A stretch of 64,000 nt of DNA from a virus (Duplodnaviria; Heunggongvirae; Uroviricota; Caudoviricetes). The translations under genes and the position numbers were made by a program. The stretch is from the IMG/VR virus record IMGVR_UViG_3300021399_000097. The stretch is one strand, 5' to 3'. The notes beneath the pieces were generated by a model. It did no database searches. It saw only the letters and a program-made list of their open reading frames with translations, and had not been told where the DNA came from. Shown here piece after piece: positions 1-64,000 of this stretch. Each line of letters begins with the position of its first letter. Position 1 is the stretch's first letter.

Positions 1-3000
1 TTTTAATTTCATTATCAATTACTTCATCAATTTTATATAACTGATGCCCGCCACTTGATGCATATTTTTTCGCTACAAACATATCATCACATCTAATTCC
101 TTGAACAATAATCATACTTCCACGATTAAACCAAGATTTTTCAACAATATGTTTTTTCCCATCATCTCCCCTTGCTGATATTTGTTTATCAAACAAAGCG
201 AAATACTCTTTTCTAAACTTAACATCAACAACACCATTTGTTGTTAATAAACTAACTGTACTTTTATTTTTATTCTTTGCAATACAAGTCCCGCAAATCT
301 TATATAATTTATATAAGTTAATTGTTTTACCATTTTTTGTGAAACTTCTATCTATCTCTGGGTCTGTTGGTAAATCATAAAAATTAACAAACCCATATTG
401 ATTATTATTTATATTACTTAATTCATGCTCATGGTAATAAAAACATAATGCTTCCATTTCCCAAGCTGAAATTGTTCCTTTTGCATATTTATTCCAATCA
501 TTTAAGAATATCAATTTATTATATTCATGCAAAATATATTGTTGATTTTCTGTCATCCAAGTTCTAAATACATCCATCCATTTTTGATATATTTTATCCC
601 AGTCTGTTTTTAAAATACAATATATATTACCATTTTGACAAATCAATTGTTCTTGTTGAATATCTATTAAGAATGACATTGCGCGCTCATCTAAAACATA
701 ATATGGTTTTAATTTATTTGCACTAATTGTAATTGCTTTTAAATATCTATTAAACTCATATATGCGTCGCGCCATTATTCGCTCTTCCGTATCTTCTGGA
801 ACTAATTTATACTGCATTAAACCTGCCATATTTTGAAGATTCACTTTTTGTTTTTTATCACAAGTCTCCCAAATATACCAAGCCATGCATTCTTTTCTAT
901 CCATCATCTTATCAAAAGCTCCACCTTTAATAAGAGACATCATTACATTCTTCTTTGGTTTTACTTTATTTATAAAATCTCGTGGCGATACATATGGACG
1001 ATTTGAAATAATTTCTTCAATTACATCATCACCAACATTTAACATACCTTTCATGCCAAACAAGATTTGATTATTCTCTGGGTCAGGGACAAATCCAAAC
1101 TCGCTTCGGTTTATATCTGCCAAACTTACTTGAATACCTGCTGCCCTAATCTGCCCTATCGCTTTTGCTAACTTTGTATAATTTGTTCCATCTTGTTTAT
1201 CGTTATCTTCATCTTCTCCACTATCTAATGCACCACTATTTACAATTAAATATGCTGTATTCCAATAGACTGGATTAAAATGAGTTCCTAAATACAAAGT
1301 TTGCATACCAATGAATGAATATGCCAATGCATGAATAATACTAAACGAATAACCCATCTGCGGTCCTGCGCCATATTTCCAAATATATTCTCCAAGATTT
1401 TTTGAAGTTGCGCTCTCTAATACTTTCTGTTTCAATCCTGGAATCTTTGACATTTGTTTCTTACCAACAATCTTACGAGCTGCATTTGCTTCTGCTAATG
1501 AAAAACCGCAAATATGTTCATCCATTAACATTCTCATTAACTGTTCTTGGCTTGGTGGAACTCCATATGATGATTTAAAATATGGCTCAACTACTTTTTG
1601 TTCATCTTCTGTTAAACCACATCTTTCCATCTCTTTATACCATAATGAGATATTATTTTTATATCTTACATATTTATCCAATGGCATTTCTGCCCCTTGC
1701 TCGCTCGCCATCAAACGCATCAATCCATTTGCGTCTGCCATTTCCAATGGAGATTGTGGACGAATCTTTTTTGCTGCTTGCGCGCCAACAGAACCTTCAA
1801 ACTGAAATACTCCTAATACACTGCCGGCCGCAAGTGCATCCCACATTTTCTTATCATCTTTTGGAAGAACATTTGGATGCAGATATTTATCATAAACTTC
1901 TCTTAATGAAAGTTTTGGGTCAATTACTTCATCTGCCTGCAACAAATCAATTGTCTCAATAATAATATCTTGAACTGCCGTTAACAAAAAGTCATACTTT
2001 ACACTACCTGCAGCCTCTTGGTCATGCAAATCCCATTGAGTTGTTAAATTACCATTTCTGGCTCGCATAATCGCTGCTTCATCAAAAATATCTTCATCAA
2101 ATAAAATAACACCAGAAGCATGAATACCTCTACGAGACACTAGACCTTCAATACCCCTCATAATATCTAATAATCCAGGATATTGATTAACTGCATTAAT
2201 AAATTGTTTTTGCGGCATACGACCTTTATCAGGATTACCTTCAATCATATCATGTAAATCCCACAAAAATCCTCTTTCCTGTGGAACCAATGATGAAATA
2301 TACTGAGCATCATCAACATCAATTCCGTCTGGATAATCTTCACTTCTATATCCACGACATGCTGTCAATACTGCTGATTTTGTTGCTTCTGTTCCAAAAG
2401 TACATACTTGAACTATTCCAAGTTCTCCACGTTCTTTTCTAATTTCTTCAAATATCTTTGGAAGTTTACTCGGTGCCAAGTCAAGGTCAATATCACCTAA
2501 TTCAACACGTTCATCATTAAGATATCTCCAGAATGGTAATGACCATTCAATCGGGTCAAGTTGAGTTACACCCAAAAGATAATGATTTAAACCAGAACAT
2601 GCGGAGCCACGTCCCGCACCTACAGTACTGCCGCACCGCCAAAACAAATCAATATAATGCTGCAAAGTATTAGGATATGCAAACATACAAGTTTCAAGTT
2701 TTTCACCAATTACTTTTTTAACTCGTGCTTCTTCTTCTAATCTGTCAAGATATTCATCTTTTAATCCAATACCTTTATTTATCAATGCTTCACAACATTG
2801 ATTAACCCAATATCTTTCTTGAACATTATCACTTTCAAATAATTCATTTAAGACCGTACGATTACCAACATCAAAGTTTTTACCTTTTTGATAATTTTTT
2901 ACTGCTACTTCTGGAATATGCTGATGTTTCTCTAAACTATAAAAATCTATTTTCTTTTTTACTTCTAATGAGTTTTCAAATATCCAATCAATATCTCTAT

Positions 3001-3841
3001 CACTCATTGCAGCGCCCAGATGCTCTCTTACTTCATCTGGCGACTGCATATAAGCATATTCATAGAAATCATCAACTTCACGTTCTTCTTGTTTAGAATT
3101 AAGATATGATTTATGAACATACCTATCTTCTTTTTTTAAATAATGAGCATCAGTTCCTACAACCATCTTCAAACCAAAAGCATGGGCAACATTTAATAAT
3201 TGTTTATTTACTAATACTTGGTCTGCTTTTGTACTTGGCGCGCATTCTATATAGAAATCTTCTTTTCCAAATACATCAACACAAAAGTTTATAAACTCAC
3301 AAGCATTATTATAATATTCTAATTCTTTTTCTTTATCTTGTTCTTTTCTTGCTAATGCTAATCCATAAAGATTTGTTGATAATTCACCGCCCATACATGC
3401 GGTAGTTGCAATTATATGACCTTTATATTTCTTCATTATCTCTTTAAGTTCACTTTTTAAAGTTGGAACTCTTTCAAGACGCCTATCTGTATAAACATTA
3501 TACCAAGCTGTTGAAGATAATTCACATAACCCTTTATATCCCAATCTATCTTTTGCTAATAAAATAAAATGATAATATTTTTGTCCTCTATCTCTTGTCT
3601 CTGTTAAATATATCTCATTTCCTAATGCAATCGTGAAATCAGGATACTTTTCTTTAATTTCTTTCGCATATTTATTTACAATTATATGCGAACATAGAGC
3701 CTCGTGGTCTGTTATACTACATCCACTTAGCCCTACTTCTATTGCTCTGTTTATTAAGTCCTTAGGATGATTTATACAATCTATTAACCTAATATTACTA
3801 TATTCTGTATGTGCATGCACATCAAAAAATGTATCTATCAA
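1..3841 (-). CDS. dnaE: DNA polymerase III alpha subunit (DnaE-like, PHP + polymerase core), C-terminus beyond window
   Basis: Continuous minus-strand frame of more than 1,270 codons with no stop of any kind. N-terminal PHP motif FDVHAHTEYS, GSTVGAGRGSACSGL, and motifs typical of pol III alpha. Apparent TTG start 7 nt after AAAGGAG. Missing from the ORF track, presumably because it runs off the window edge and starts with TTG. Confidence 0.8.
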   Translation of the reverse strand, partial: MIDTFFDVHAHTEYSNIRLIDCINHPKDLINRAIEVGLSGCSITDHEALCSHIIVNKYAKEIKEKYPDFTIALGNEIYLTETRDRGQKYYHFILLAKDRLGYKGLCELSSTAWYNVYTDRRLERVPTLKSELKEIMKKYKGHIIATTACMGGELSTNLYGLALARKEQDKEKELEYYNNACEFINFCVDVFGKEDFYIECAPSTKADQVLVNKQLLNVAHAFGLKMVVGTDAHYLKKEDRYVHKSYLNSKQEEREVDDFYEYAYMQSPDEVREHLGAAMSDRDIDWIFENSLEVKKKIDFYSLEKHQHIPEVAVKNYQKGKNFDVGNRTVLNELFESDNVQERYWVNQCCEALINKGIGLKDEYLDRLEEEARVKKVIGEKLETCMFAYPNTLQHYIDLFWRCGSTVGAGRGSACSGLNHYLLGVTQLDPIEWSLPFWRYLNDERVELGDIDLDLAPSKLPKIFEEIRKERGELGIVQVCTFGTEATKSAVLTACRGYRSEDYPDGIDVDDAQYISSLVPQERGFLWDLHDMIEGNPDKGRMPQKQFINAVNQYPGLLDIMRGIEGLVSRRGIHASGVILFDEDIFDEAAIMRARNGNLTTQWDLHDQEAAGSVKYDFLLTAVQDIIIETIDLLQADEVIDPKLSLREVYDKYLHPNVLPKDDKKMWDALAAGSVLGVFQFEGSVGAQAAKKIRPQSPLEMADANGLMRLMASEQGAEMPLDKYVRYKNNISLWYKEMERCGLTEDEQKVVEPYFKSSYGVPPSQEQLMRMLMDEHICGFSLAEANAARKIVGKKQMSKIPGLKQKVLESATSKNLGEYIWKYGAGPQMGYSFSIIHALAYSFIGMQTLYLGTHFNPVYWNTAYLIVNSGALDSGEDEDNDKQDGTNYTKLAKAIGQIRAAGIQVSLADINRSEFGFVPDPENNQILFGMKGMLNVGDDVIEEIISNRPYVSPRDFINKVKPKKNVMMSLIKGGAFDKMMDRKECMAWYIWETCDKKQKVNLQNMAGLMQYKLVPEDTEERIMARRIYEFNRYLKAITISANKLKPYYVLDERAMSFLIDIQQEQLICQNGNIYCILKTDWDKIYQKWMDVFRTWMTENQQYILHEYNKLIFLNDWNKYAKGTISAWEMEALCFYYHEHELSNINNNQYGFVNFYDLPTDPEIDRSFTKNGKTINLYKLYKICGTCIAKNKNKSTVSLLTTNGVVDVKFRKEYFALFDKQISARGDDGKKHIVEKSWFNRGSMIIVQGIRCDDMFVAKKYASSGGHQLYKIDEVIDNEIK

Positions 3842-3876
3842 ACTAAAAACTCCTTTTCGCTATTTTTCTTTATTAT

Positions 3877-3905
3877 ATTATATCATATTTTTTCCTATGT
3901 GTCAA
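3877..3905 (-). promoter_or_regulatory. sigma70-type promoter P1 (TTGACA, 17 nt, TGaTATAAT) for dnaE
   Basis: Perfect consensus on the minus strand. Confidence 0.6.
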
Positions 3906-4074
3906 GTTGTTCCTGCAAACTGTCAATACCTTCTACAAGTATCTGTGTCATCACAGCAACTGCACCTGCATTATCAGTTTTAGAAAGCAAATAACCAATA
4001 AGATTATTTTCATCATTATTATAAAGGATTTTCCGCATTTCATCCAATAATTCTTGTGTAATTTCTATTTGCAT
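3883..4074 (-). CDS. small hypothetical protein (63 aa, 1 in-frame TAG)
   Basis: ATG overlaps the upstream TAA. Ends at TGA, and its 3' end carries the DnaE promoter. Confidence 0.3.
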
Positions 4075-5693: not shown

Positions 5694-7463
5694 TTAAAAC
5701 TCCCATTGACTTCTTGTTTGTATTTCAAAATCTTCTAACATAATTTGTGGCGTTACGTTTCCCATATAATGATTAAGAGCGCATTTACCAATTGCTGTGA
5801 TTATAATAATTCCATTTTGTGGGTCAAGTAACTGTTTTTCTTCTTCAGTAATATTAAACTTAATTATATTTAATTGTCTGTCTGGGAAACTAATTTTTAA
5901 AGTATTTTTATTAGAACCAATAAAATGTATTGTATCAGCTGTAAGTTTAATATTTGTAATTGCAATCAAAGGCTCGTCTAAATGTTGGCCCCATAAATCA
6001 GCATTAGACCCAATAGAAAATACATCATTATCATCTAATTGGTTAAAGTTTAATTCTAGATCTACTAAATAACAAGGTGAAAAATCAAAGTCTTTTAATT
6101 TTTCATTCGTTACTTCAACAAACTTATCATAATTTTCAACAGGAATTGCGCATCCAAAAGCAGATGCATGGCCTTGTGCTAATGATGTTAGACCAGTATC
6201 TAAACAAAATTGTCTAAAATCTTCTAATTGAGAATTACCATAATTGCGGCCAGACCCCGCATAGACAGGAGTTCCTTCCTCATCAACTGTTTCGCGCAAA
6301 ATTAACGTAGGTTTAGCATACTTATTAGCAATTTGGTTAGCAATTAAGCCAGCAAGATTTTGGTCAACTGCATCAGCGGCAACGCATACTACTAAAAGTT
6401 TATTTTCTAATAAATTATTTTCATAAATCAATTCTTCAACATAAGCTAAACTACTATCTTGCGCTTTTTTCTACCTACTCTTTACATTGATACAAGTACG
6501 GCCGGCCTGTTCGTGTCTTGTTTCAACTTGACCTTTGCATCCTCTTTTGGTTGAAGGAATAAGTTCATCACTACGCCAATCTAACATTGCTTCAAACATT
6601 AGATACTTTTCTTCTGGTGTTCCACTTCTAACCATAGCATTAATATAAGGAGTAATGTAAAAAGCAATTCCAATAGGAGTAATATTATTTTCAAATTGGT
6701 ATCTTTGTCTATTCATCATTTCTACAAAGAAATGATTGGTAATATTTGCCAGACCTAATTTAATAAGTTCGTGTGTCTCAAAATCTCTTTGGTCCATCAT
6801 ATCACTAATTAAAGATAATGCTACTAAATCTTCAAAATCTTTTGCATAATTGGTTTTCATTAAAATATCAAATTGTGAGCAAAACTTATAAACAATAGCA
6901 CCGCCGCATAAAGATTTTGTAGGATATTGTGTAGATAATTGATTGTTAATTACACAAGCGTATTTACTATATCCTTCATCTGCTTCATGGTGGTCAAGAA
7001 CTAAACAGTCAACTTGATGGTTATATAAAAGCTCATGTGCTTCATAATCATTACTTGCGGCATCTGGTACTATAATTAATTTATATCCTTTAGCTAACCA
7101 GTTACTTTGTTCAAGAACATCTTTTAAGCCATGCTACTTACCAGTATGGATAAAATAATCAACATTATTCTGTACCCACCCTGGGAAGAACTTATTGAAA
7201 TAATTCATAAATATAGCAGCAGAACAAAAACCATCGGCATCAGCATCAACTACAATTAGAGCCTTATCATTAGCATTGATATGTTTAGCTAACATTTGCA
7301 AGCCTTCTACCATATTGTCTAAAAGCAATGGATTTAAGATATCATTCTCATCAGTTGATAAAAAATGAATAATATCTTCAGTAGTTTTAAATCCTCTATT
7401 TAATAAAATCTATTGTAATAAAGTAATACCATTTTGTCGTGGTGCAATTAATCTATATTCCAT
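5694..7463 (-). CDS. recJ: RecJ-like DHH-family ssDNA exonuclease (3 in-frame TAG)
   Basis: Track ORFs 5694..6431, 6471..6860 and 7134..7328 plus the upstream segment share one frame, joined by TAG at about 6471, 7134 and 7410. Motifs DADADGF, LDHHE, GGAIVYKF and AQGHASAFGC, and an N-terminal region resembling the RecJ N-terminus. Confidence 0.75.
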
Positions 7464-7804
7464 TTATCTAATACTCCTTTATCATTATATCTATAAACTG
7501 GCACAGAAGGAGTACTAGCTAATTTGATTTTGTCACAAAGAGTATTTTCAATAAAAAATAGGTTCGCGCAATTATCAGCTGTATCTTGATTAAAAGGAAC
7601 TGCTAATATTGTAATTCCACAATGCTTATTCTAATTATTCATATATCCATAAATCTTGCCATCGTGATAAGCAGTTTCATATCTACTTCTATGAAAATCT
7701 CGTCTAATAAGTGCTGCTGTAATATCAAAAAATAATGCTTCTGTATAATTTCTATTACTGTCTTTATCATATAAAATTATTATAAGTAAATCTTTGTTTT
7801 CCAT
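7448..7804 (-). CDS. hypothetical protein (118 aa, 1 TAG)
   Basis: ATG overlaps the primase 3' end. Its TAA overlaps the RecJ ATG. Confidence 0.4.
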
Positions 7805-8877
7805 AATTGTAAAAATATATCCTTTCCATCATCTACTGGAGCATCTTTATATCCTGTTAACATCTGTTTGTCAAATATAATACTAATATCTAAATAATTT
7901 TTATACTTATTATGAAGTTTGGTTAAATTACTAGTTAGATGCTTGAACTCATCATCTCCAATAGCTTGGAATTGTCTATCAAAAGCAATAGTCATTTCTT
8001 TAACCCCAGCATCTAATAGTAATTGTACTTGATAAATAGAGATATTTGACCCACAACAAGCGACTGAAATATCATTATCTAAACCAAAAAAAGATTGATA
8101 TTTTAAACAACTTTTTTCACTTTCAAAAATAATTGCCCGATGTGTAATATTGATATTATTTTTACTATTATTTAAATTATATAAGTTCATTCCAAGAGGA
8201 TGATTATATAATTGCCGATTAACAAACAATGGTCTATATTTACCATATAAATCAGCATCTTGTTTACACAAAGACCTTCCACGTAAACCAATGAAGTTCC
8301 CATCTTTATCAAAATGTGGGATGGTGATTTGCGCTCCACCGGGATAAAAACCTATTCGCGCATTATCCATTACAGATTGAGAAATGCCTTCACGCAACCA
8401 TGGATTAAGTTTAACATTATAATTCATACGAGATAAAATAATATCATCATAAGGCTTTAAAGTTACTCTATAATCTTTATTTTCTATCTCTTGGACCCGG
8501 TCATATGTATTAAAAAATTGCCAATCTAATAATGTCTCTTGTTCGTCAAACTCTTCTTCTCCAGCAAGATTAAACTTAATAGCAATATAACGAACAGCAT
8601 CATTTAAGTCATATTCTCTGCCCCATTGGTTATTAGCAACTTTAATCAATAATTCAAATATATCAAAACTGCCGCAGTTAGTAAAACAATGAAACAACCC
8701 AGTATTTTCATAATAGTATAATTTACGACTACCTTCACCTGGTTGATTATGGCAAATAGTTGAAGAAAGGATACCAAAGCTGGTATACTCTGGATCCCCT
8801 CCCCATTCTTGCAATAAGTCAAAAATGTTCTCTATTTTTAATTTTTCTCTAACTTCATACTTTTTATAAGTAACCAT
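7780..8877 (-). CDS. DNA primase (zinc-binding + TOPRIM)
   Basis: CHNQ...HCFTNCG zinc motif and IIFESEKSC TOPRIM motif. TAATG overlap with the upstream gene. Confidence 0.65.
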   Translation of the reverse strand: MVTYKKYEVREKLKIENIFDLLQEWGGDPEYTSFGILSSTICHNQPGEGSRKLYYYENTGLFHCFTNCGSFDIFELLIKVANNQWGREYDLNDAVRYIAIKFNLAGEEEFDEQETLLDWQFFNTYDRVQEIENKDYRVTLKPYDDIILSRMNYNVKLNPWLREGISQSVMDNARIGFYPGGAQITIPHFDKDGNFIGLRGRSLCKQDADLYGKYRPLFVNRQLYNHPLGMNLYNLNNSKNNINITHRAIIFESEKSCLKYQSFFGLDNDISVACCGSNISIYQVQLLLDAGVKEMTIAFDRQFQAIGDDEFKHLTSNLTKLHNKYKNYLDISIIFDKQMLTGYKDAPVDDGKDIFLQLWKTKIYL

Positions 8878-9095
8878 TATACTAAGACAACCCTAGTGCA
8901 ATACCCCTTAAGTCTAAACTCTGTATTTACAATATCACACAAGAACTTTTGAGGATTGCTATGCTGGTCATCGCCTTTTCTTGTGGCTAAAAGTTGTTTT
9001 GCATAAGCCTTTGGCATTTCATACTCAATTTCTCCATAAAAAGGTGTAGACCATACAGTAGTGGGTACACTCTCAATAATCTTATCTTTTTTCAT
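8877..9095 (-). CDS. hypothetical protein
   Basis: AAGGAG SD 8 nt upstream, TAA stop. Confidence 0.45.
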   Translation of the reverse strand: MKKDKIIESVPTTVWSTPFYGEIEYEMPKAYAKQLLATRKGDDQHSNPQKFLCDIVNTEFRLKGYCTRVVLV

Positions 9096-9109
9096 TATTT
9101 ATTCTCCTT

Positions 9110-10639
9110 TTAAAAAGCACTTGGCTCTGTTGTTAATATTTTTAAATTATCAATCTGTACAATTTCATAACTATATGTTGTCGCAAACATTGGTTGGATA
9201 CGACAAGTTCCTAAGTCTGCTTTACACCAAAGATAAATCCCTTTATATCTACCACGACGATTTTTATAAATTGACATTTTTAAATCTGGTTTATCAAATG
9301 CATTATTCGCTAAAATACGTTGTAGATTTTCTATATCATCATCTTTTGCCGGAAGTAAAATTGCACCCATATCTATTTTATCTGCAATTGCTTTTGCACC
9401 ACGCAATAGATTTTGGTCAGGCGTTTCACTTATTTGATAATCACCATTTAACTGAGTTGCTGACATAATAAAAATGCCATACTTATTACATAAATCTTTA
9501 AGTCTAATTGATAACATAAAAAGAATTGTATCTTCACGAAGTTTTACTCCACCAGACCTACGAGTAATTTCTTCTAATATCTTTAAACTAGTATGAATAT
9601 AATCAAAGAAACAATACTTAATATCATGGTCTCTTATATTCTTTTTGATTTTATTTTCAACATCTTGTAATGAGAAATCTGGTAATACTTCAATATAAAT
9701 TGGACTATTCTTTAAAATTCTACCTGCCTCATAAACTCGTTCTTTTTCATCGCCTTCATATTTGCCATTTAAAATATGTTCTTCATTAACATTAGATAAA
9801 AATGCTAACATCATTGTTTGTATTTCACCTAATTCTTGCTCTGTTGTAATATACAACACTGGTTCAGCAACTCCATTGTTATTCCAACCAAATACATTAT
9901 CATATATTTTATTGCATCCAATATTACAACAATCTGCAATCATAGAACGAGACTTACCAACGCCAGTAGGTGCCGAGCGCAAATAAAACTTTTTTAATCG
10001 CGCACCTCTTGTAACTGTGTTAATCAATGGCCCATAAAGTGGTACTCCTACCTCTGGACTTTTTTCTAACTCTTGAAGTAAATCAATTATTCCTTCACCA
10101 GCTTGTGTTGCTTCACCCCAAGCATCATCTACATATGTTGATTTTATTTGGTCAACTTTATCTTGAACTTTTTGAGCAATATTTTCAAGACTTGTGTTAT
10201 CTAATATCTCTTCTTGCTGTTGGCGTTTCTTGATATCTACAATATTGTCTGGGTCATAAATATCACTAACGTCAATCCCATATTGATCAAAAACCCTTAA
10301 TAAAGTCATTTTCTTCATTCGGTTATAATAATAATCAAATGAAGCAGTTTCCGCATTTTCACTAGCTTTTAATAGCCATTCTTCACCTTTTTGTTTGGTA
10401 AATATAGCTTCACTTTTTGGACGAGAAGATAAATAATCCAAAATACTATTTAAAGTAATTTTTTCTGCGCCCAACTCATGCAGTTTAAAAATACTTCCAA
10501 ACACAATTTTATGAAACTGGTCTGGAAAATCATCATCAGTAATTGAATATCTATCTGTATAATCCAATAGTTGAGGAGATTTAAAAACACACCCAATTAC
10601 TTGAACAATACTAGGTGTATCTACATATTTTGAACTCAT
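9110..10639 (-). CDS. dnaB: replicative DNA helicase (DnaB family)
   Basis: Walker A PTGVGKSRSM, IFIMSATQLN, and a C-terminal GAILLP...YKNRRGR region. GGAGGAGG SD. Confidence 0.7.
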   Translation of the reverse strand: MSSKYVDTPSIVQVIGCVFKSPQLLDYTDRYSITDDDFPDQFHKIVFGSIFKLHELGAEKITLNSILDYLSSRPKSEAIFTKQKGEEWLLKASENAETASFDYYYNRMKKMTLLRVFDQYGIDVSDIYDPDNIVDIKKRQQQEEILDNTSLENIAQKVQDKVDQIKSTYVDDAWGEATQAGEGIIDLLQELEKSPEVGVPLYGPLINTVTRGARLKKFYLRSAPTGVGKSRSMIADCCNIGCNKIYDNVFGWNNNGVAEPVLYITTEQELGEIQTMMLAFLSNVNEEHILNGKYEGDEKERVYEAGRILKNSPIYIEVLPDFSLQDVENKIKKNIRDHDIKYCFFDYIHTSLKILEEITRRSGGVKLREDTILFMLSIRLKDLCNKYGIFIMSATQLNGDYQISETPDQNLLRGAKAIADKIDMGAILLPAKDDDIENLQRILANNAFDKPDLKMSIYKNRRGRYKGIYLWCKADLGTCRIQPMFATTYSYEIVQIDNLKILTTEPSAF

Positions 10640-11316
10640 TCACTTTCCTCCTCCTCTTGGTCTAAAAAAGAAAATAACTTTCTTTTTTCAATTTCTCTTT
10701 TCGGCGATGGGATTACCACAACTACATCTTTTGGAATATAATCATTTAAATCTTTCTGTTTATTTTCCTAATCTGCTAACCATAAAGCATAATAATAATC
10801 ATAAGCATTTTTATAAATATAAGGGATAATTCCAACCCCTCTATCTAAATCCACAGGTTTTTTCTTTACATCATACCAATATTTTAATGCCTTTAACATC
10901 CCAGAATATGTAAAGTTATACTCTTTTTCATATTGAGTTAATTGTTTTGCATATCTTGGTAAAATATAGTCATCTTTTAATTTAAATAAATTGATTATAT
11001 AAACAGTTAATTCTTCTTTATCATTTGCAGGATGATGTTCGGCGCATGCTTTATGGACATATCTATTTTTTAATTGCGGCATTGGTATAACATCTTCTGC
11101 ATCTTTATATATTGCTTGATGGCACCAAAAACAATTAGTTGTTAAGGCTGGGTCCCATATTCTATAAGTTTCAGTTTCTGTTTTATTTTCTACTGCATCT
11201 ATATAACATTGGGCATGCCCGTGTCTAAATACTGACCCATGAGGAATCTAAACATATGGCTCTTTTTCTTTATCAAACTTTTTTTTGCAATATTTACAAG
11301 TTACTATTGAAGCCAT
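10636..11316 (-). CDS. zinc-finger protein, possible helicase loader (2 TAG; C-terminal 42 codons after the second TAG are uncertain)
   Basis: MASIVTCKYCKKKF...CFWCH Cys/His cluster. ORF 10768..11082 is its central part. A TAG at about 11248 joins the N-terminus. A TAG at about 10768 is followed by an in-frame acidic tail that ends at a TGA overlapping the dnaB ATG. Confidence 0.45.
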
Positions 11317-11349
11317 TTAATTCCTTCTTTCTATAAAATCTCTATATAT

Positions 11350-11378
11350 ATTATAACATAAAAAAATAGAAAAATCAA
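11350..11378 (-). promoter_or_regulatory. sigma70-type promoter P3 (TTGATT, 17 nt, TGtTATAAT)
   Basis: Minus-strand motif family. Confidence 0.55.
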
Positions 11379-11409
11379 GTCAATGTTGATTTTTCTATTT
11401 TTATTTATA

Positions 11410-12405
11410 TTACTTCATCAAATCTTCTTTAATATCATTGATTACCAGATAAATCAGCTCTGCCTGGTCACGAGTTGCATTTGATACTTTCTTACCTTTA
11501 CCAAAATACTTCTCAACAATCTGTGTTACTTTTGGAGCATACTGTTCAGCGTCTTTACTCATTAGCTGTCCTGTAATTTCAGTAAACTCTTTGAAAAGTT
11601 CATCATAATCATAATCTTTAATGATATTTGTAACTTCTCTTTCATTTGTTACAAACTCATTATTATGTTCCTTAGCTTCACTATCAATTGCATCAGTTAG
11701 TGCTTTAGCAAGAGATTCATAGTTGAAGTCAATAACTGGAGCCATATTTTTAAATCGGCTACCACAAGAAATACCAGAGTTTGCTGGAGACCGCAACATC
11801 AACTTCATGGCAGTTTTACCCTCTTCATCAGTGGTTGCAAAAGCATAACCATAAATATCTGCCATATTTTCAATAATCTTCAAAGCAGACGACTGAATAG
11901 AAGGTTTAACTTCTTCACCAATTTCTTTACCTGCTGCATTTTTCATTGGACTTCTGGAAGCGTGTGAAATAAACACAACTGCATATCCCATCATTGTAAG
12001 TCCTCTAAATACTTCTTCAAACTCTTTCTTGTATCTAGGCCAACTGTTATTCCCCCAGCCGCCATCGCCCATCTGTTCAATACCAAGCTGACTACAAATA
12101 TATTTCTGGCAAAGGTCAGCGGCAATATCAACTGTATCAATAACAATTGTTTTATAGGCTTCTTTTACTTCTTCTTTTTTAAGTTCTCTATAAATCTGTT
12201 TCATTTCGCCCCAAGTAGTGACATCCTGCGCCATAATACCAGGGATTGCGTTATAACCTTTTTCAAATGCCAAAAGAAGAGGCTTTGGCATTTGAGAGGC
12301 AAGAGTCGTCTTACCTGTTTTAGGAGGGCCATATACAAAAGTAATATACCCAGAAAGGTCACGACTAACTTTATGGGGCTGAATGCTCAAAAGGTTAATA
12401 GCCAT
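11410..12405 (-). CDS. Sak4-like RecA-fold recombination ATPase (AAA_24)
   Basis: Walker A GPPKTGKTT and IVIDTVD; layout typical of phage Sak4. Confidence 0.65.
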   Translation of the reverse strand: MAINLLSIQPHKVSRDLSGYITFVYGPPKTGKTTLASQMPKPLLLAFEKGYNAIPGIMAQDVTTWGEMKQIYRELKKEEVKEAYKTIVIDTVDIAADLCQKYICSQLGIEQMGDGGWGNNSWPRYKKEFEEVFRGLTMMGYAVVFISHASRSPMKNAAGKEIGEEVKPSIQSSALKIIENMADIYGYAFATTDEEGKTAMKLMLRSPANSGISCGSRFKNMAPVIDFNYESLAKALTDAIDSEAKEHNNEFVTNEREVTNIIKDYDYDELFKEFTEITGQLMSKDAEQYAPKVTQIVEKYFGKGKKVSNATRDQAELIYLVINDIKEDLMK

Positions 12406-13804: not shown

Positions 13805-14083
13805 TTATTCTACACTAAGTGTATAGCCAATGACTTTGTTCGCGCCATAGACTATATCAAGAAAGTTTTCAATTTCATCTATAACATACTATGTTTTACT
13901 ACCATGATAATTGTTTAAGAACTCACCATAAGAAATCATATGTATATCATTAATTCCATATTGCTTGGCTTTATATTCCATTGCTCTTGGATTACTACAT
14001 ACTAATACGGCATTATTTTCTTTTGCTAATAAAAGCAATTTACTAGTTTTACCAGTTCCTCTTCCATCAATAATACGATGCAT
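13805..14083 (-). CDS. small P-loop protein (1 TAG)
   Basis: GRGTGKTSKL. Reading through the TAG at 13889 carries on to a TAA that sits exactly at the -35 box of P4. Confidence 0.4.
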
Positions 14084-15234
14084 TATTTAATACTGTACCC
14101 CCATTCTTTGGCGTTATAAAAGTTCTACCAATAATCTTCTTTTTCGTTTAAAAGATTTCCAGAACATTCTTCAATAATTTCAAACATAAAGTTTTCAACA
14201 CCAATAGCTAACATAGCAGGATAAAGTTTATTCTATGTAGGAGGGTCTGCGCCGATGCCTCGTTTAATATGTTGTTTCCAACGTTCTGCAATATCAACTG
14301 CCTATCCTACATAACACATTCCATTATCTATATTAGTTATTTTATAAATACCTGTTTTACGTCCTTGTCCTACTACTCTACCAATTAAATCAGTACATGG
14401 TTTTTCATAATATACTTTCCAAATAACCTTATTTAATGGTTCTTTTTTTCTTAAATAAGGTTCAATAGAACGAATACGTTTTATTTCTTCTTTATCAATT
14501 TCATCTAATTGTAATCTATAAAAATCTTTTTGTTGTTTATCGGCGGCCGCACGTTTATTAGACTCAATAGCAGCATTAGCCATTTGTTGTAAATTATTTA
14601 ATTGATTTTCTTTTTCTAAAATCTAATTATCTAATTTCTCTGTAGTAATTAACCATTCATCTCTTTGGGCATCTGCTAAATCTTGATAATGAACTAATAA
14701 TTCACTTTCTAGTTGTTCATATTTATTGATTAAATCTTTGCTTTGCTGTTCAACTTCTGTTGTCATATTATTAACAACTTGCTCTTCAACTAATTTAGCA
14801 GCAGTTTTAGCCTAATTATCTAAATCATTAATTAAATGTTTCTTTTCTTCAATCTACTATTCTAAACCAGAAACTTCAGATTTTAAATTAGATTCATGCT
14901 ATGCCCAATAAATAATTTTTTGATTTTTTTCTTTGTCCCAAGCAATACGTTCATTAACAATTTCAGCCTATGCAGTTCGCGCAGCTTTTTCTAATTTTTG
15001 ATTCTACTCTTCAAAATCAGCTATATATTTATCTGTTAATTGAGAATACTGCTTATCTAATTCTGTATTTTTTTGAATATATTCTTTTTCTAAATCTTTT
15101 ATGCGTAATTGTATTTGCTATTCTGCTATTTCTAACTCTTGGTTTTTCTATTTAACTTTTATAGTTCTTATCAATTGTCCAATTAGAAAACCAAGTAAAA
15201 GACAGACAATCCCTATAATAAGTGCGTTATTCAT
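14083..15234 (-). CDS. membrane-anchored coiled-coil GIY-YIG nuclease (17 in-frame TAG)
   Basis: N-terminal TM segment LIIGIVCLLLGFLIGQL, then a coiled coil of about 230 aa, then a C-terminal GIY-YIG domain GIYKITN...CYVG[TAG]A...ERW..H...EIIEEC. ORF 14302..14583 is its central fragment. Confidence 0.7.
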
Positions 15235-15854: not shown

Positions 15855-15883
15855 ATTATACTAAAATTTTTTTAAAAAGTCAA
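15855..15883 (-). promoter_or_regulatory. sigma70-type promoter P6 (TTGACT, 17 nt, TATAAT)
   Basis: Minus-strand motif family. Confidence 0.55.
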
Positions 15884-17811
15884 AGCATCGCTAATAGGTC
15901 ATCTTCTGTTATAATGCTGACATTAAGCTGTTTTGCTTTTTGATTTTTTGATGAAGTTGAATTAATATCATTATTTACAAGATAATTAGTTTTTCCACTA
16001 ATACTACTAACAACTTTGCCGCCTGCTGCTTCAATTCTTGCTTTTGCTTCATCTCTATTTTTAAAAGTATTTAATTTTCCTGTGATGCAGAATGACAAGC
16101 CAGCGCAAGCACCTTCATTTTTCTTTTCATTAAATAAACTATTATTTAATTTAATTATTTGATTATCAATTAAATCATTTGCTTCTGTAAAATTAAATGC
16201 ATGAAGGGCTTTATTTATCTCATACCCAAAATTATCCCATTTTGAAAAATCAAAATCTTTTATATATTCCATAAATTGTTCCCAAGTTTCGCAATATCTA
16301 CAAATCTCTTTTGCATAATTTGTTCCAATCAACGGAATACTTAATGCTGAAATAAATTGCCACATTTCACATTCTTTTGAGTTTTCAATTGTTGTTAAAA
16401 TATTCATAACCGATTTAGGCCCAAATCCATCTTTTTTAGCCCATTCATTTTGATATTTATGAAGATAGAAAATATCTTTTAATGAAGTGACCCATTCCCA
16501 ATTGATAAGTTTTTGAAGAGTTGCTTTTGAAAGTCCTTTAATATCTAAACCTTTTTTACCAACAAAATGGTCAAGGCGATTGATAAACTTACCATCACAA
16601 TCTGGGTTAGAACAATAAAGAAAATTATCTTTAATATAAGTATCTTCTCCACAACAAGGACATTTTTTAGGTGGATCAAAATACCAAAGTAAATCATCAT
16701 TTCTTTTATCTCCCCAAATAATTTGAGGAATAATTTGATTTGCTTTAATTACTTTTATATCTTGCCCACAATAAGGATGACCCAATATTTGATTAATAAT
16801 ATTTAGGTTATGAAGAGATGCTCTAGTTACTAGACTTTCTCCATCATCAATTTCATCAAATATTGCAACAGGAGTAATTTGTCCTGTCTTTCCCATAGAC
16901 CATTCAATATTACGAAGTTTTGACTCATATTCTTCATCATAAAATTTATATGCTAATCCACCTTTAAAATGATGTCCCGTGTATCCAAGAGAATCATAGT
17001 AAGCGCAATCATTATACTTAAATACTATTCCATCTATTGGATATGATTCACTTTTCGCCCAATCTTTTAATAGATAAATCATATGCTCTAATTTATCAAT
17101 TGTGAAATTAGAAGTTGTATTCAACCAAGGAACTGGTAAGAATCCAAGCCTAGTTAATTCAACTAATTTCTCGTTTAAAGTTGGAACATTTAATCCTTTA
17201 ATACAATCCCAAGCAACAAAGGTTAACTTCCTTTGAGCGCTTTCTTGTGAATCCAATAAACGTATAGAGCCACTGGCAAAATTACGGGGATTTTTATAAT
17301 CGCTATTAAAACTTTCAAAATCTTCATAAGTACAAATTACTTCTCCATCAATTATCAGTTCATCTTTACTATCTAATTCTATTGGAACGCCTTTCACGAA
17401 CTTCATATTGTTTAAAATATCTTCACCTATTGTGCCGTCGCCACGAGTTTCAGCGCCAACAAGTTTGCCATCAATATAATGCAAAGAGCAGGTTAAACCA
17501 TCCATTTTAGCCATACCGACACAATCTTTATTGTCCATAAAATCTAATACTTCTTCAAGATTTTTTGTTTTATCTAATGATAACATTGGATGATTATGCT
17601 CAACTTTATTTAATTGACTAACAATTTTAAAATCAATATGTTGAGTAGGTGAATTACCAAAAATTAAACCAGTTTCTTTTTCTAATGATTCTAATTCAAA
17701 ATATAAATCATCATATTTTTTATCGGTGATTTCTGGTTTCCCTTCATCATATAATTTATTATAATAATTTAATTTTTGTATTAATTCATATATTCTATCA
17801 TGTTTATTCAT
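15880..17811 (-). CDS. ligA: NAD+-dependent DNA ligase
   Basis: KMDG adenylation motif, Zn finger CPCCGEDT...C, and a C-terminal BRCT-like region. Confidence 0.9.
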   Translation of the reverse strand: MNKHDRIYELIQKLNYYNKLYDEGKPEITDKKYDDLYFELESLEKETGLIFGNSPTQHIDFKIVSQLNKVEHNHPMLSLDKTKNLEEVLDFMDNKDCVGMAKMDGLTCSLHYIDGKLVGAETRGDGTIGEDILNNMKFVKGVPIELDSKDELIIDGEVICTYEDFESFNSDYKNPRNFASGSIRLLDSQESAQRKLTFVAWDCIKGLNVPTLNEKLVELTRLGFLPVPWLNTTSNFTIDKLEHMIYLLKDWAKSESYPIDGIVFKYNDCAYYDSLGYTGHHFKGGLAYKFYDEEYESKLRNIEWSMGKTGQITPVAIFDEIDDGESLVTRASLHNLNIINQILGHPYCGQDIKVIKANQIIPQIIWGDKRNDDLLWYFDPPKKCPCCGEDTYIKDNFLYCSNPDCDGKFINRLDHFVGKKGLDIKGLSKATLQKLINWEWVTSLKDIFYLHKYQNEWAKKDGFGPKSVMNILTTIENSKECEMWQFISALSIPLIGTNYAKEICRYCETWEQFMEYIKDFDFSKWDNFGYEINKALHAFNFTEANDLIDNQIIKLNNSLFNEKKNEGACAGLSFCITGKLNTFKNRDEAKARIEAAGGKVVSSISGKTNYLVNNDINSTSSKNQKAKQLNVSIITEDDLLAML

Positions 17812-17839
17812 AACATCACCTATATTTTTACTTTAATAT

Positions 17840-17868
17840 ATTTTATCATATTTTTTTAAAAAAGTCAA
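17840..17868 (-). promoter_or_regulatory. sigma70-type promoter P7 (TTGACT, 17 nt, TGaTAAAAT) for ligA
   Basis: Minus-strand motif family. Confidence 0.5.
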
Positions 17869-17929
17869 ATTGGACAAATTAAAATAATAGTGAGGAAGTA
17901 TTTTTCTAATTTATATAGAAATAACAATT

Positions 17930-18985: not shown

Positions 18986-18999
18986 TATAATATTTTATA

Positions 19000-19034
19000 G
19001 GGAAGATACAATATGTATCTTCCCTATTTTTTTA
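19000..19034. terminator. bidirectional hairpin terminator (GGGAAGATAC..GTATCTTCCC)
   Basis: 10-bp stem plus T-run. Sits between two convergent genes. Confidence 0.6.
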
Positions 19035-19265
19035 TTTATCTCTACTATTGCTTTCACCAGTATAAACTGGTCTACCATTATATGGGCCGCCAAAATAATA
19101 TCCCTTAATATCTTTTTCACATTCATCACAGTAAGCAGGAACATCATTATTAATGGCAAACTCATCTCTTTTACCCCTACTAACAAACTCTTTGCCACAT
19201 TTAGCGCAAACAATTATAGGGGCGTCACCCATAATTTTGATTTTATTATTTTCAAAAGAAGTCAT
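19032..19265 (-). CDS. small zinc-ribbon protein
   Basis: CAKCGK...CDECEK. I placed the start at an internal ATG that has an AAGGAG SD. Confidence 0.4.
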   Translation of the reverse strand: MTSFENNKIKIMGDAPIIVCAKCGKEFVSRGKRDEFAINNDVPAYCDECEKDIKGYYFGGPYNGRPVYTGESNSRDK

Positions 19266-19278
19266 TTCAATTTCTCCT

Positions 19279-39267: not shown

Positions 39268-39271
39268 TTTT

Positions 39272-55266: not shown

Positions 55267-57171
55267 ATGAGTTTATAGGTGTGGCTTCCTTTAAATGGAG
55301 ATTTACATAATTAGGGGTTAAGTGGTTCACTTAATTTTTCTACTGTTGGTACTGTAACTAATGTAAGTGGAAAGATTGGGCAAGCAAAACATTTTTCCGA
55401 TGCAAGACTAATGGCTCCATACTCATATACTTTAGGAAATGAATTTTCTTTTGCAGCATGGATAAAGTGGGATTCATTTAGAAGTGATAATGATTGGATT
55501 ATTGAATTAGGTAATACATCAAGTGGTTATGCTAATGCCTTATTTGGATTAAGTGTAAAATCTGGTTCTTCTAGTAATACTGTTGTGTGTATTGGTGGAA
55601 AAAATGTTACTTCATTAACTAATAATTTTGTAACGGCTAAATGGTTCCATGTCACTGTGACTTGGGATGGGAGTACTGTAAAATTATATTCAAATGGATT
55701 ACTAATAGATTCAAAAGCATTGACAAAAGGAACTTTAACAACAAGCTCTAATCTTAGTTTAGCTTGTAATGTTGCTAATAGTTCTACTAAATTTACTGGG
55801 TCTTTAAATGATGTTCGTATTTATGACCATTGTTTAAGTGCAAAAGAAGTAGAAGAAATTAGTAAAGGATTAGTATTACATTATAAATTAGATAATAGTA
55901 ATATTGGGAATGAAAATCTTTTATTAAATTCTTTAACTCCAACTTCTGGAAATGGAGCTAAGGGAGTAGTAAAAAGTATAGAAAATGGTATTTAGAAAAT
56001 AGTAGCTGATAATCCTAATAGTAATTGGGTTACATTTGCTAATCATAATACAACTTTAGCCTTAGCCAAAGGAGATAGTTTTACTTTTTCTTTAATGATA
56101 AAAAGTCCAGATTCTAATAAGAAACCTACAGTATATTTTCAAAGTGGAATGGGATATTTTTCTATGTAGGGTATTATGTCATCTGATTGGTCAATTATCT
56201 ATTATACTGGTATTTGGAATATAGATAATTTAGCAACTAATATACATTTAGGTTTTTCTTCAGCTCCAGGAACATATTATATACAATATTTTAAATTAGA
56301 AAAAGGTACAACTTATACATCTTGGGCCCCAAATCATAATGATTAGGAATGGTCAGCATATAACTGTAATAATAATATTGTTTATGATTGTTCTGGATAT
56401 AATAATAATGGAATAGCAAATCAATTAACTACTACTTCAATTAGTGCAAGATATAAAAATGGTATTGTTTTTAGTGGTAGTAGTTCATATGTAAAAACTA
56501 TAGAAAATAAATGGATGGCTTAGTATGCTAGAGAGATGACTATAAATTTATGGGCTAAAGCAGCAACATGGCCCACAAGTGGACGTATTTTTAGTTGTAC
56601 TGAAACTGGTGGATTTAATACAGAAGCAGGTAGCTCTGGATATTGGCGTTTTCCAATTTATGTTTGTACGAATGAAGCACAAACTTCATATGCTTATAAG
56701 TATGATTCACAAGAAATTTAGATTTCTGCTTTACCTGTTAATGAATGGGTAATGCTTACTTTTGTATATGATTCTACTGGGACTCGGACATATATTAATG
56801 GAGAATTACATCATACTTATACAAATACATCTTATGGTATTAGATTTAATACTAATGCTAGATTGTTCTTAGGATGTGAAGCCAATAGCGCAAATCCTTC
56901 TTCTCCATATTTTAATGGTCAAGAAAGTGATTTTAGAATATATTATACTGCTTTAACCCCAGAGTAGATTTTAGAACTTTATAATACTTCTGCAACAATT
57001 GATAATAAAGGGAATGTATATTCAAGAGAATATATAGAAAACAATAAATTAAATATTACTAAAACAGGATTGTTTTAGTGTAATAAAATATATGATGATG
57101 ATGAATTAACCGTTGCCTCTATTGTGAAAAGTACACAATAGGTATAGGGCAATACAATATATGAATATTGA
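55267..57171 (+). CDS. receptor-binding protein with two LamG/ConA-like lectin domains (about 12 TAG)
   Basis: Domain 1: FSFAAWIKWDS...KWFHVTVTWDGSTVKLYSNGLL...VRIYDHCLSAKEVEEI. Domain 2: MTINLWAKAATW...LTFVYDSTGTRTYINGEL...FRIYYTALTPE. ORFs 55411..55995, 56536..56721 and 56752..56967 are fragments. Confidence 0.6.
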
Positions 57172-63100: not shown

Positions 63101-63504
63101 ATGCAGAGTTTAGAAAAACTAATAATGATGTTGAACCAGGCCGATGTGTTGTTGAATCTGGTGATGATACTCTTAAATTGTCAACTGATAGATTATAGCC
63201 TGGAGCTGAAATTGTTTCTGATACTTTTGGATATGTTATTGGAGAAACTGATGACGCTAAAACACCTATTGCAATGACAGGAAGAGTGCTTGCATATCCT
63301 TATGAAGATAGAGAAATATTCAAAAAGAATATTGGTAAACCAGTTTGTTCTGGTCCTCAAGGTACAGTTAGTATAATGAGTGATGAAGAATATTAGAAGT
63401 ATGGATATTGCACTATTGGCACAGTATCTTCTGTTCCAGATTATTCAGAGTGGGGAACTGGTAATGTTCCTGTTAATGGACGTATTTGGATACGTGTGAA
63501 ATAA
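57187..63504 (+). CDS. giant tail fiber protein (single 2,105-codon reading frame; about 16 TAG) with repeated modules of about 90 aa and a chaperone-like C-terminus
   Basis: Seven track ORFs (57673.., 58363.., 58849.., 59914.., 60682.., 62449..) are all in the same frame, separated only by TAG, with no TAA or TGA until 63502. TTG start after GGGAGG. C-terminal SGVLYGACWNDYAEFR motif. Confidence 0.55.
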
Positions 63505-63522
63505 TATAAAGGGGGCAAGATT

Positions 63523-64000
63523 ATGGCAACTGTAACTGGCCCCCTCTCTGCGGGGACATTAGTAAAAGCAGCGACTCATGCAAGTGCGAGTTCGCAATAT
63601 GGAAAAAAAATTAGTCCATCAACAAAAGGTACGGCAGCAAGTGGCTGGTATTGGGATACAGCGAATGTGGCAACTGGTAAATTAATTAGTCATACTAATT
63701 TAAAAAAATAGAGTTTTTCATCTAATGTTAGTGTTACCATTAAAGCACCATGTGCTTATACTGTTACATGTAATGGGACAAGTAAAAGTGGAAGCAGAGG
63801 AACAACTACTTTTACTTTTCCTGTTACCACCACTGGTCAATATGCTGTTGTAAGTACATTAACTGGAAGTGCTACTTCCCGGAATGGTGGAGAGTATACA
63901 AAAACTACTTATGCTACTGTTAGTTCAACAGCAACTGCAGTAGCCACAGCTTAGACTTACTATCAATGGCTATGGAGAAGTGGATATGGCAGCTGTACTT
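63523..64000 (+). CDS. hypothetical structural protein (partial, TAG-containing)
   Basis: GGGGG SD. Continues beyond the window. Confidence 0.35.

Follow-up and report, generated by a model that had tools for sequence, protein, structure and literature searches.

TAG read as a sense codon, most probably glutamine, and partitioned by gene class in a large tailed phage

The closest described systems are the TAG-recoded large gut phage clades Sapphire, Agate and Jade, which have genomes of about 150-210 kb and occur in human and animal guts, including those of cattle (Borges et al.). In these clades TAG encodes Gln, replication genes keep to the standard code, recoded structural and lysis genes sit in several modules over the genome, and a single clade can contain both recoded and standard-code phages; the intron endonuclease of Agate is strongly recoded. 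Proteomics has proved that code-15 crAss-like phages insert Gln at TAG (Peters et al. 2022, PMC9523058); only their late genes are recoded (Yutin et al.; Peters et al. 2022, PMC9523058), and genomes in the lineage that Borges et al. analysed are about 105 kb. Lak megaphages (Devoto et al. 2019; Crisci et al. 2021, PMC8346664) also live in animal guts and have TAG-recoded late genes, with genomes of about 540 kb, Prevotella hosts, many tRNAs and RF2. Phassvirus phAss-1 (Babkin et al. 2023, PMC10607447), also from the gut, has a genome of about 136 kb in which 41 ORFs contain TAG, and it carries three suppressor tRNA genes.

We analysed a 64,000-nucleotide stretch of tailed-phage DNA (the window), for which in-frame reading of TAG as sense had been predicted. 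The phenomenon is real but already well described, and it fits the code-15 recoding that Borges et al. and Peters et al. have published for phages. Near-identical contigs span 176-196 kb, one in ENA being 195,902 bp long; contigs with an identical PolIII span 73-196 kb, and the lengths of IMG/VR relatives cluster at 160-200 kb. The replication module comprises a DnaE-type PolIII, SPbeta-like YorF and YorH, DnaB, gyrase and NAD-ligase. Megablast of the window against 50,697 GenBank phage records gave no match, and the best tblastn match of GyrA among GenBank phages had 36% identity. The source is probably ruminant gut or rumen and the host probably a member of the Bacillota, to which the binning of family contigs with MAGs from poorly known lineages of that phylum weakly points.

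The partition of TAG among genes is the one that the model of Borges et al. describes (bioRxiv 10.1101/2021.08.26.457843). The traits given above for their clades recur here, and the strongly recoded endonuclease of Agate has a counterpart in a homing endonuclease. However, the non-structural PhoH2 and radical SAM genes are among the most recoded here, and the parts searched yielded no suppressor tRNA; the clades were compared by description. The original prediction also drew a crAss-like comparison, but the phage is not crAss-like: its size (about 196 kb), its DnaE/YorF/YorH module with gyrase and NAD-ligase, and the lack of nucleotide or close protein similarity in the GenBank searches all differ, as does the likely host (Bacteroidota for crAss-like phages). 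Nor is it a Lak megaphage, given the size of its near-identical contigs. phAss-1 has a similar number of TAG-bearing genes (39 here), but its relatives are GenBank records, whereas the window has no similarity to that phage collection, and its suppressor tRNAs had no counterpart in the parts searched here.

Under greedy ORF models without overlaps, the coding density of the window rose from 0.692 under code 11 to 0.905 with TAG as sense, compared with 0.775 for TAA as sense and 0.691 (i.e., no gain) for TGA as sense (code 4). The largest gain from TAG was at 48-64 kb, where density went from 0.44-0.53 to 0.85-0.93. Refined models gave 84 genes, 39 of which (46%) contain the 140 in-frame TAG codons; this frequency is far above chance expectation and amounts to 19% of TAG+CAA+CAG across the window. 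TAG is therefore in-frame and read as sense, as predicted, although the predicted count of at least 45 TAG-bearing genes was slightly high (models of at least 50 aa were used for this comparison). Positions of the main features are given in Table 1.

Table 1. Main features of the window and their TAG content
Feature	Position	Strand	TAG content and remarks
DnaE-type DNA polymerase III alpha	1..3877	-	1 TAG vs 51 CAA/CAG; 3' end beyond window
Small gene	3883..4074	-	only TAG is codon 60 of 63, then TGA
RecJ-like exonuclease	5694..7463	-	3 TAGs, one within DHH domain match
Primase, DnaB helicase, YorH-like gene, AAA_24 ATPase	7780..12405	-	2 in YorH-like gene, 0 in other three
GIY-YIG homing-endonuclease gene	14083..15234	-	12 TAGs
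TAG after YVG of GIY-YIG	14302-14304	-	
NAD-dependent DNA ligase, GyrA, GyrB	15880..23530	-	no TAG
Plus-strand gene within 15880..23530	17930-18985	+	4 TAGs
RNase H	24125..24589	-	only TAG is codon 151 of 154
Endolysin (PG_binding_1 + ELLD + SH3_3)	25085..26476	-	5 TAGs
TAG at conserved F-Q position of PG_binding_1	26123-26125	-	
PIN+PhoH (PhoH2/YlaK-like)	26523..27818	-	14 TAGs, 70% of Gln-type codons
TAG in GD..Q.D-type PhoH motif	26664-26666	-	aligns to Gln
TAG in DEAQN-type PhoH motif	26751-26753	-	aligns to Gln
34 mostly small genes	28075..43016	-	one TAG each in only 5 genes
Two genes in 36113..37817	36113-36442, 37197-37817	-	only TAG is last or next-to-last sense codon, then TAA
Cys-rich repeat protein (adjoins radical SAM gene)	46122..46979	+	7 TAGs, 64% of Gln-type codons
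Radical SAM / SPASM-type gene	47575..48909	-	15 TAGs, 54% of Gln-type codons
Fibre-like gene, 1010 aa	52218..55250	+	3 TAGs; TTG start and GGGAGGG Shine-Dalgarno context as in giant fibre gene
Two-LamG-domain protein	55267..57171	+	11 TAGs, 58% of Gln-type codons
Giant repetitive fibre-like gene, 2105 aa	57187..63504	+	17 TAGs; no in-frame TAA/TGA

Protein matches lead to the same reading. Pfam domains cross TAG in RecJ (DHH), GIY-YIG, PG_binding_1, ELLD, SH3_3, PIN+PhoH, Radical_SAM, Laminin_G_3 and dUTPase, and both Pfam and PDB matches do so without gaps. Retranslation thus recovered the RecJ, PhoH, radical SAM and dUTPase matches that had been anticipated, and the predicted YVG-TAG-A and AVIKF-TAG-KENRLT motifs and the TAG-bearing frame of both LamG domains were likewise borne out; the LamG gene probably encodes a tail or receptor-binding protein. 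In the GIY-YIG gene, a single open frame encodes both a transmembrane and coiled-coil N-terminus and the GIY-YIG domain. The giant fibre gene, which starts at a TTG downstream of a GGGAGGG Shine-Dalgarno site, had been described as six ORFs in one frame separated only by TAG. Its frame is indeed split only by TAG, but into 18 segments, 6 of which are at least 100 aa long, and its other two frames contain 45-120 TAA+TGA per 1000 codons. TAG positions are also conserved in independent assemblies: all 17 that could be aligned in a 96%-identical contig are kept as TAG. Near-identical contigs are already translated with TAG as Gln by public pipelines.

The prediction had TAG as sense across the whole window, which holds for its meaning but not for its distribution: use is not uniform, and TAG is all but missing from the 28-43 kb block and the replication genes. 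TAG use is in fact bimodal, with one TAG in replication genes versus the TAG-rich PhoH, radical SAM, LamG, fibre, endolysin and homing-endonuclease genes. The small-gene block, which is probably early, includes an RNA ligase, an AAA_33 kinase, phosphoesterases, RlaP and a Thg1-like gene. TAG is therefore concentrated in late, structural and lysis genes (timing being judged from gene function), while replication genes are compatible with the standard code. This partition by gene class is conserved across relatives. In 51 recoded relatives, the TAG fraction is at most 1% in gyrA, gyrB and ligase, compared with 37% in GIY-YIG, 26% in radical SAM, 19% in endolysin and 16% in PhoH genes, and all alignments to relatives contain only 16 internal TAA/TGA codons versus hundreds of TAGs.

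We consider it highly probable that the window belongs to a large tailed phage, with a genome of about 196 kb, in which TAG encodes Gln (code 15), with partitioned recoding and a suppressor-tRNA switch after infection; the suppressor tRNA, its timing and the host are the parts that we infer. A tentative refinement of this explanation, which would not replace it, is that TAG is context- or time-dependent and not fully reassigned: in early genes it would act as a stop, with a TAA or TGA backup a few codons on, and it would become Gln once suppression is on. We regard this as possible, if somewhat doubtful. With TAG as sense, gene ends are TAA (58) and TGA (26), but their exclusive use is built into such models and true by construction. 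Four of the 16 single-TAG genes have that TAG within their last four codons (expected 0.68, P about 0.004), which suggests that TAG is not purely sense and that a few extreme-3' TAGs may still act as stops; the claim that gene ends are always TAA or TGA is therefore not established. Among the four, the RNase H is the one with informative relatives, the two closest of which have TAA at codon 150 or 151, at or beside the TAG. However, more distant RNase H relatives run on beyond this position, with Ala aligned to the TAG, and the four cases could be functionless relics of ancestral TAG stops.

The agent that decodes TAG was sought in this genome over about 74 kb of about 196 kb. ARAGORN and Rfam detected no tRNA genes of any kind in the window and no tRNA in the 10 kb past its left end in a near-identical contig, and ARAGORN was equally negative for about 200 loci from relatives, among them an unbroken 61.5 kb of a 145-kb recoded relative. 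The proteins scanned contained no RF2 or GlnRS domain; of the genes to which the original prediction had pointed, a CUA-anticodon tRNA, RF2 and GlnRS were thus not found in the window, the adjoining 10 kb or the relatives' loci. Borges et al. (bioRxiv 10.1101/2021.08.26.457843) likewise detected suppressors in no more than 40% of genomes with TAG recoding. The null results are the reason to consider that the lineage may read TAG as Gln with no conventional suppressor tRNA of its own, using a non-canonical tRNA or a reprogrammed host tRNA. Conceivably, an RNA-repair or editing kit (Thg1-like 3'-5' polymerase, RlaP, RNA ligase, kinase and phosphatases) could aid such decoding. We think this quite unlikely.

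The same null results would be expected if the host itself reads TAG as Gln and the phage mirrors the host code, with no switch during infection, and the poor knowledge of the Bacillota lineages mentioned above also leaves some room for this. To our knowledge, no bacterium with TAG as Gln has been described. This reading is very unlikely, because the window and the 51 recoded relatives show strong bimodality by gene class, and 26 relatives of the same family have no TAG in the aligned genes; the PhoH gene of one relative, L004, is TAG-free codon by codon. Furthermore, the recoded codon occurs in about 90% of genes in phages of recoded hosts (Borges et al., bioRxiv 10.1101/2021.08.26.457843), compared with under half here.

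That TAG is a sense codon for some other residue (e.g., Glu, Lys, Tyr, Ser, Leu, Trp or pyrrolysine) has a little in its favour: PhoH site 232 is Tyr (TAT) in bacterial homologues and in L004, several radical SAM TAG sites align to Lys, Asn or Pro, and TAT, AAG, GAG, TTG, TCG and TGG are all one mutation from TAG. We compared the window codon by codon with 85 loci from relatives, leaving out database proteins already translated with code 15, which would be circular evidence. TAG columns align to CAA 454 times, CAG 128, TAG 138, GAA 163 and AAA 135, and their substitution spectrum is like the one at true Gln sites. The dominant aligned codon, CAA, is two mutations from TAG, so closeness by mutation does not account for this pattern. 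Of 70 aligned TAG sites, 65 have a sense-codon residue; an empirical-profile likelihood analysis of these ranked Gln first, 26 nats over Glu. Individually, 18 of these 65 sites voted for Gln, as did 99 of 276 genuine Gln sites and 40 of 696 Glu sites. Both standard-code bacteria and solved structures have Gln at the invariant motif positions: CAA/CAG occupies PhoH sites 188, 233, 356, 368 and 385 in 8 or 9 of 9 cultured Bacillota genomes, PDB 3B85 has Gln at three of the motif TAGs, and F-Q stands at the endolysin TAG in phiKZ gp144 and in three further PG_binding_1 domains of known structure. L004 likewise has CAA/CAG at five conserved PhoH columns. Pyrrolysine can be set aside, since TAG columns are Gln in homologues, no Pyl-synthesis domains or tRNA were found in the window, and the best match of the radical SAM gene is the SPASM enzyme CteB, not a PylB-type protein. 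On these sequence comparisons the residue is Gln, as the prediction had it, and another residue is scarcely credible.

Lastly, the reading in which TAG remains a stop and the split ORFs are pseudogenes, assembly artefacts or separately expressed fragments, for which one can say that the fragments are individually open under code 11 and some have an ATG start, is effectively refuted and has next to no chance of being right, as the frames are interrupted by TAG only and never by TAA/TGA (2105 codons in one case), catalytic motifs lie on TAG, TAG positions persist across assemblies and only code 15 restores density.

Under the preferred explanation, a TAG-to-Gln phage with partitioned recoding, the replication genes and the small, probably early, genes avoid TAG and would therefore be expressible by the unmodified host translation apparatus. 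The tail fibre, LamG, endolysin, PhoH2, radical SAM and homing-endonuclease genes would depend on TAG read-through. After infection, a Gln-accepting suppressor tRNA(CUA), whether from another part of the phage genome or from some other source, would become available and outcompete RF1 at TAG, switching the recoded genes on, while TAA and TGA would still terminate. This published suppressor mechanism is the most likely one for the phage analysed here.

Coding density was calculated from non-overlapping ORF models under four codes, which replaced summed ORF lengths because the latter do not discriminate between codes in AT-rich DNA (the window has a G+C content of 32.6%). The standard code (code 11) gave a density of 0.692, and reading TAG, TGA or TAA as sense gave 0.905, 0.691 and 0.775, respectively. 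The gain from reading TAG as sense was largest at 48-64 kb, where density rose from 0.44-0.53 to 0.85-0.93. Refined gene models contain 140 TAG codons, i.e., 19% of all TAG, CAA and CAG codons.

Pfam matches on the rejoined proteins cross TAG in RecJ (DHH and RecJ_OB) and the endolysin (PG_binding_1, ELLD and SH3_3), and the GIY-YIG, PIN+PhoH, Radical_SAM, dUTPase and paired LamG domains are likewise continuous over it, as the original prediction had claimed for the RecJ N-terminus, the SPASM Cys cluster, both LamG domains and others. The two motifs it quoted, from GIY-YIG and PG_binding_1, were also found where it placed them. In RNase H, the sole TAG lies just past the end of the domain match. 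The giant fibre gene is one frame, as predicted: 17 TAGs divide it into 18 same-frame segments, six of them at least 100 aa long, and none of its 2105 codons is TAA or TGA. The other two frames contain 45-120 TAA and TGA codons per 1000, so the open frame cannot be due to chance. TAG is therefore read as a sense codon in genes of the window.

Which residue is inserted cannot be read from database proteins. A homologue search returned a 96%-identical PhoH protein with Gln at all 14 TAG columns, but the DNA of its contig has TAG at all 14 positions, and the Gln is the database's own translation. The public protein collection already uses table 15 for near-identical contigs, and entries from two relatives (L001 388-1641 and L002 1394-2644) are likewise pre-translated with TAG as Gln. 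Without a check of the DNA, naive comparison of homologues at these columns is thus circular, so we rejected Gln counts in database proteins as evidence and used codons only.

The codons favour Gln. The PhoH gene of relative L004 (P0064) has no in-frame TAG, translates correctly with table 11, and has CAA or CAG at sites 233, 306, 356, 368 and 385. Gln also occupies the motif sites 233, 356 (DEAQN) and 385 (GD..Q.D) in the Corynebacterium glutamicum PhoH structure (PDB 3B85), and nine cultured Bacillota genomes (from Shimazuella, Thermoactinomyces, Croceifilum, Baia, Paenibacillus and Coprococcus) have CAA or CAG in eight or nine of nine at sites 188, 233, 356, 368 and 385. When all window proteins, with X at TAG, were aligned by tblastn to 85 loci from relatives, the codons opposite TAG were CAA (454), GAA (163), TAG (138), AAA (135) and CAG (128). 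Mutational proximity does not explain this pattern, since CAA is two mutations away from TAG.

We then scored the 65 of 70 aligned TAG sites at which relatives have a sense-codon residue, using substitution profiles learnt from the same alignments. Gln ranked first, with Glu 26 nats behind. Per-site votes for Gln (18/65) resembled those at genuine Gln sites (99/276), unlike those at Glu sites (40/696). In PG_binding_1 of the endolysin, the TAG aligns to the F-Q that is conserved in phiKZ gp144 and in three further solved domains, and the codon after YVG in the GIY-YIG domain of relatives is TAG in 14 cases, Gln in 11 and Leu in 4. Composition fits too: CAA and CAG make up 2.5% of codons in TAG-rich genes, or 3.9% once TAG is added, versus 3.2% in TAG-free genes. 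Little about the residue can be learnt from the solved rSAM and RecJ structures because their aligned TAG positions are not conserved. Taken at the codon level, these comparisons support the original reading of TAG as most likely Gln. For crAss-like phages, proteomics shows Gln insertion (Peters et al., PMC9523058).

TAG use is bimodal between genes (see table). The minus-strand block at 28-43 kb contains only five TAGs in its 34 genes, each in a separate gene. The same split between gene classes is found in 51 recoded relatives, where the TAG fraction is at most 1% in gyrA, gyrB and ligase and reaches 37% in GIY-YIG, 26% in rSAM, 19% in endolysin and 16% in PhoH. In another 26 relatives, the aligned genes are free of TAG, so the family mixes recoded members with members lacking aligned TAGs.

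Window features and their TAG content (Gln-type codons are TAG, CAA and CAG)
Feature	Position (strand)	Property
Gene with terminal TAG	3883-4074	TAG 0-3 codons before TAA or TGA
GIY-YIG ORF	14083-15234(-)	TAG 34% of Gln-type codons
YVG-TAG-A motif (GIY-YIG)	14302-14304(-)	
RNase H (terminal TAG)	24125-24589	TAG 0-3 codons before TAA or TGA
Endolysin	25085-26476(-)	
AVIKF-TAG-KENRLT motif (PG_binding_1)	26123-26125(-)	
PhoH2	26523-27818(-)	TAG 70% of Gln-type codons
Two possible phosphoesterases	29058-29615, 35380-35952	No Pfam match
RNA/tRNA-repair genes (kinase, ligase, RlaP, Thg1-like)	29612-30106, 32458-33693, 40004-40810, 42264-43016 (all -)	
Two metallophosphoesterases	30319-31071, 38455-39267	Pfam Metallophos
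Gene with terminal TAG	36113-36442	TAG 0-3 codons before TAA or TGA
Gene with terminal TAG	37197-37817	TAG 0-3 codons before TAA or TGA
Cys-rich protein	46122-46979(+)	TAG 64% of Gln-type codons
rSAM/SPASM	47575-48909(-)	TAG 54% of Gln-type codons
Fibre start contexts	52190-52225, 57170-57195	
LamG protein	55267-57171(+)	TAG 58% of Gln-type codons
Giant fibre	57187-63504(+)	TAG 35% of Gln-type codons
Partial ORF	63523-64000(+)	
PolIII alpha		1 TAG in 52 Gln-type codons
UvrD-like helicase, primase, DnaB, AAA_24, NAD-ligase, GyrA, GyrB, RNA ligase, SPFH		0 TAG

With TAG as sense, genes end in TAA (58) or TGA (26). The original prediction that real gene ends always use these codons is not established, as four of the 16 single-TAG genes have their TAG within the last four codons (expected 0.68, P about 0.004). 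In RNase H, the TAG is at codon 151, TAA occupies codon 150 or 151 in the two closest relatives, and reading continues beyond this point in more distant relatives. TAG may still act as the stop in some genes whose expression precedes suppression, backed up by a second stop a short way downstream, and the four genes are probably expressed early. Alternatively, the terminal TAGs may be relics of ancestral TAG stops.

ARAGORN and Rfam found no tRNA in the window or in the 10 kb to its left in the near-identical contig L086. ARAGORN also found none in about 200 family loci (around PhoH, PolIII, the g65-g69 gene block and the fibre, baseplate, tape-measure and capsid regions), including 61.5 contiguous kb of one recoded 145-kb relative. 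Among the matches listed by a pattern search (CUA anticodon loop and T-arm), none came from this phage family, and no scanned protein had an RF2 or GlnRS domain. tRNAs turned up only in unrelated phages, about 45 kb in size, that have one protein in common with the family. One such tRNA, with a UUA anticodon, lies on the 42.4 kb contig of an unrelated phage with a g67-like protein (L177 12865-12935) and would be a TAA suppressor.

The missing suppressor tRNA is no contradiction because about 120 kb of the genome was unread and just 40% of the TAG-recoded genomes of Borges et al. (bioRxiv 10.1101/2021.08.26.457843) had a detected suppressor. Since so little of the genome was visible, recoding that dispenses with a conventional suppressor tRNA is unlikely. 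In the model of Borges et al., early genes are host-readable and late-gene expression requires a suppressor that arises in the course of infection, and TAG is partitioned in the same pattern in the window. Here too, the host would read the early genes, a suppressor would appear as infection proceeds, and late-gene translation would depend on it.

TTG is the start codon of the giant fibre gene and also of the fibre-like gene at 52218, in nearly identical contexts, a GGGAG-type Shine-Dalgarno sequence followed by CTGAAGATTGGC, and their proteins have the N-terminus MA.(L/F)K in common. ATG-only gene calling shortens the fibre genes by 126 and 241 codons. The GIY-YIG ORF is a single open frame in which a transmembrane helix and coiled-coil segment are joined to a GIY-YIG homing-endonuclease domain. 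Its N-terminal part contains nine of the 12 TAGs and weakly matches an Rz-like spanin PHROG (E = 2e-4), and the ORF may be either a true fusion or two genes in the same frame. At the right edge, the partial ORF, even with Gln at its two TAGs, has no detectable homologue in a collection of 5.8 billion proteins, and its gene model is uncertain.

The nearly TAG-free 28-43 kb block encodes an AAA_33 kinase, an RNA ligase with a PHA02142 OB-fold, an RlaP nucleotidyltransferase and a Thg1-like 3'-5' polymerase. Together with two metallophosphoesterases, these make up an RNA/tRNA-repair kit, which is probably a counter-measure against anticodon nucleases; a link to TAG decoding is pure speculation. 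Elsewhere, a 285-aa protein consisting mostly of Cys-x-x-x-Cys-type repeats is encoded convergently to the rSAM/SPASM enzyme. Of the solved structures, the sactisynthase CteB is this enzyme's best match. The two genes rank among the most TAG-rich of the window, and they may form a phage-borne RiPP-type substrate/maturase pair.

No GenBank phage matched 7.6 kb and 11.3 kb of the window by megablast, tblastn of its GyrA gave only matches of at most 36% (no family member with an annotated genome), and an exact-sequence look-up of GyrA found no record. ENA contigs as long as 195,902 bp encode PolIII proteins 99-100% identical to the window's, and IMG/VR relatives cluster at 160-200 kb. The 195,902-bp contig, near-identical to the window, is SHIW14-1_SAMN02144231-S010_METAG-scaffold_46 of ERZ28612944. 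Precomputed Pfam labels (YorF and YorH), alongside a DnaE-type polymerase, point to an SPbeta-like replication module. Given this module, the size of the near-identical contigs and the lack of a similar GenBank phage, the phage is not a crAss-like one.

Across the family, gene order is mosaic. In the relatives examined, the g65-g69 block is within about 10 kb of PolIII, with g67 8-9 kb beyond the PolIII stop codon. One relative has its gyrB split by an inserted GIY-YIG gene (L002 6486-9447), which looks like a homing endonuclease or intron; the window's gyrB is intact. Two others (L176 2177-3442 and L184 2190-3455) have a 421-aa ORF with 9-11 TAGs about 1.1 kb from a fibre-like gene, and its N-terminal sequence alone prompts the guess that it might be the putative reverse transcriptase of a diversity-generating retroelement.

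Contig names indicate sheep rumen and other herbivore gut samples, and MAGs of Clostridia, Bacilli and "Mollicutes" contain related contigs, which is weak evidence for a Bacillota host. Family contigs of phage-genome size also sit inside bacterial MAGs in GTDB (L247-L279; e.g., CAMELE010000001.1, 163,874 bp, and JAZNWP010000048.1, 176,152 bp), labelled Clostridia, Bacilli, Mollicutes and even Absconditabacterales or Nanosyncoccus. These are likely binning contaminants and only weak host hints.

Standard-code annotation fragments about half of the genes, so table 15 translation is needed, and code 15 is already what automated pipelines apply to this lineage. A recoded lineage alone opens no new question, and the sole real novelty would be recoding without a conventional suppressor tRNA, if true. 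The lineage is one more fit to the "standard code early, recoded late" model; it abounds in animal guts, probably infects Bacillota and carries an SPbeta-like replication module. Because close relatives with and without aligned TAGs exist, it provides a usable natural series for the rise and order of recoding, in which the genes recoded first, in the window, are PhoH2, rSAM, the homing endonuclease, LamG and the fibre genes.
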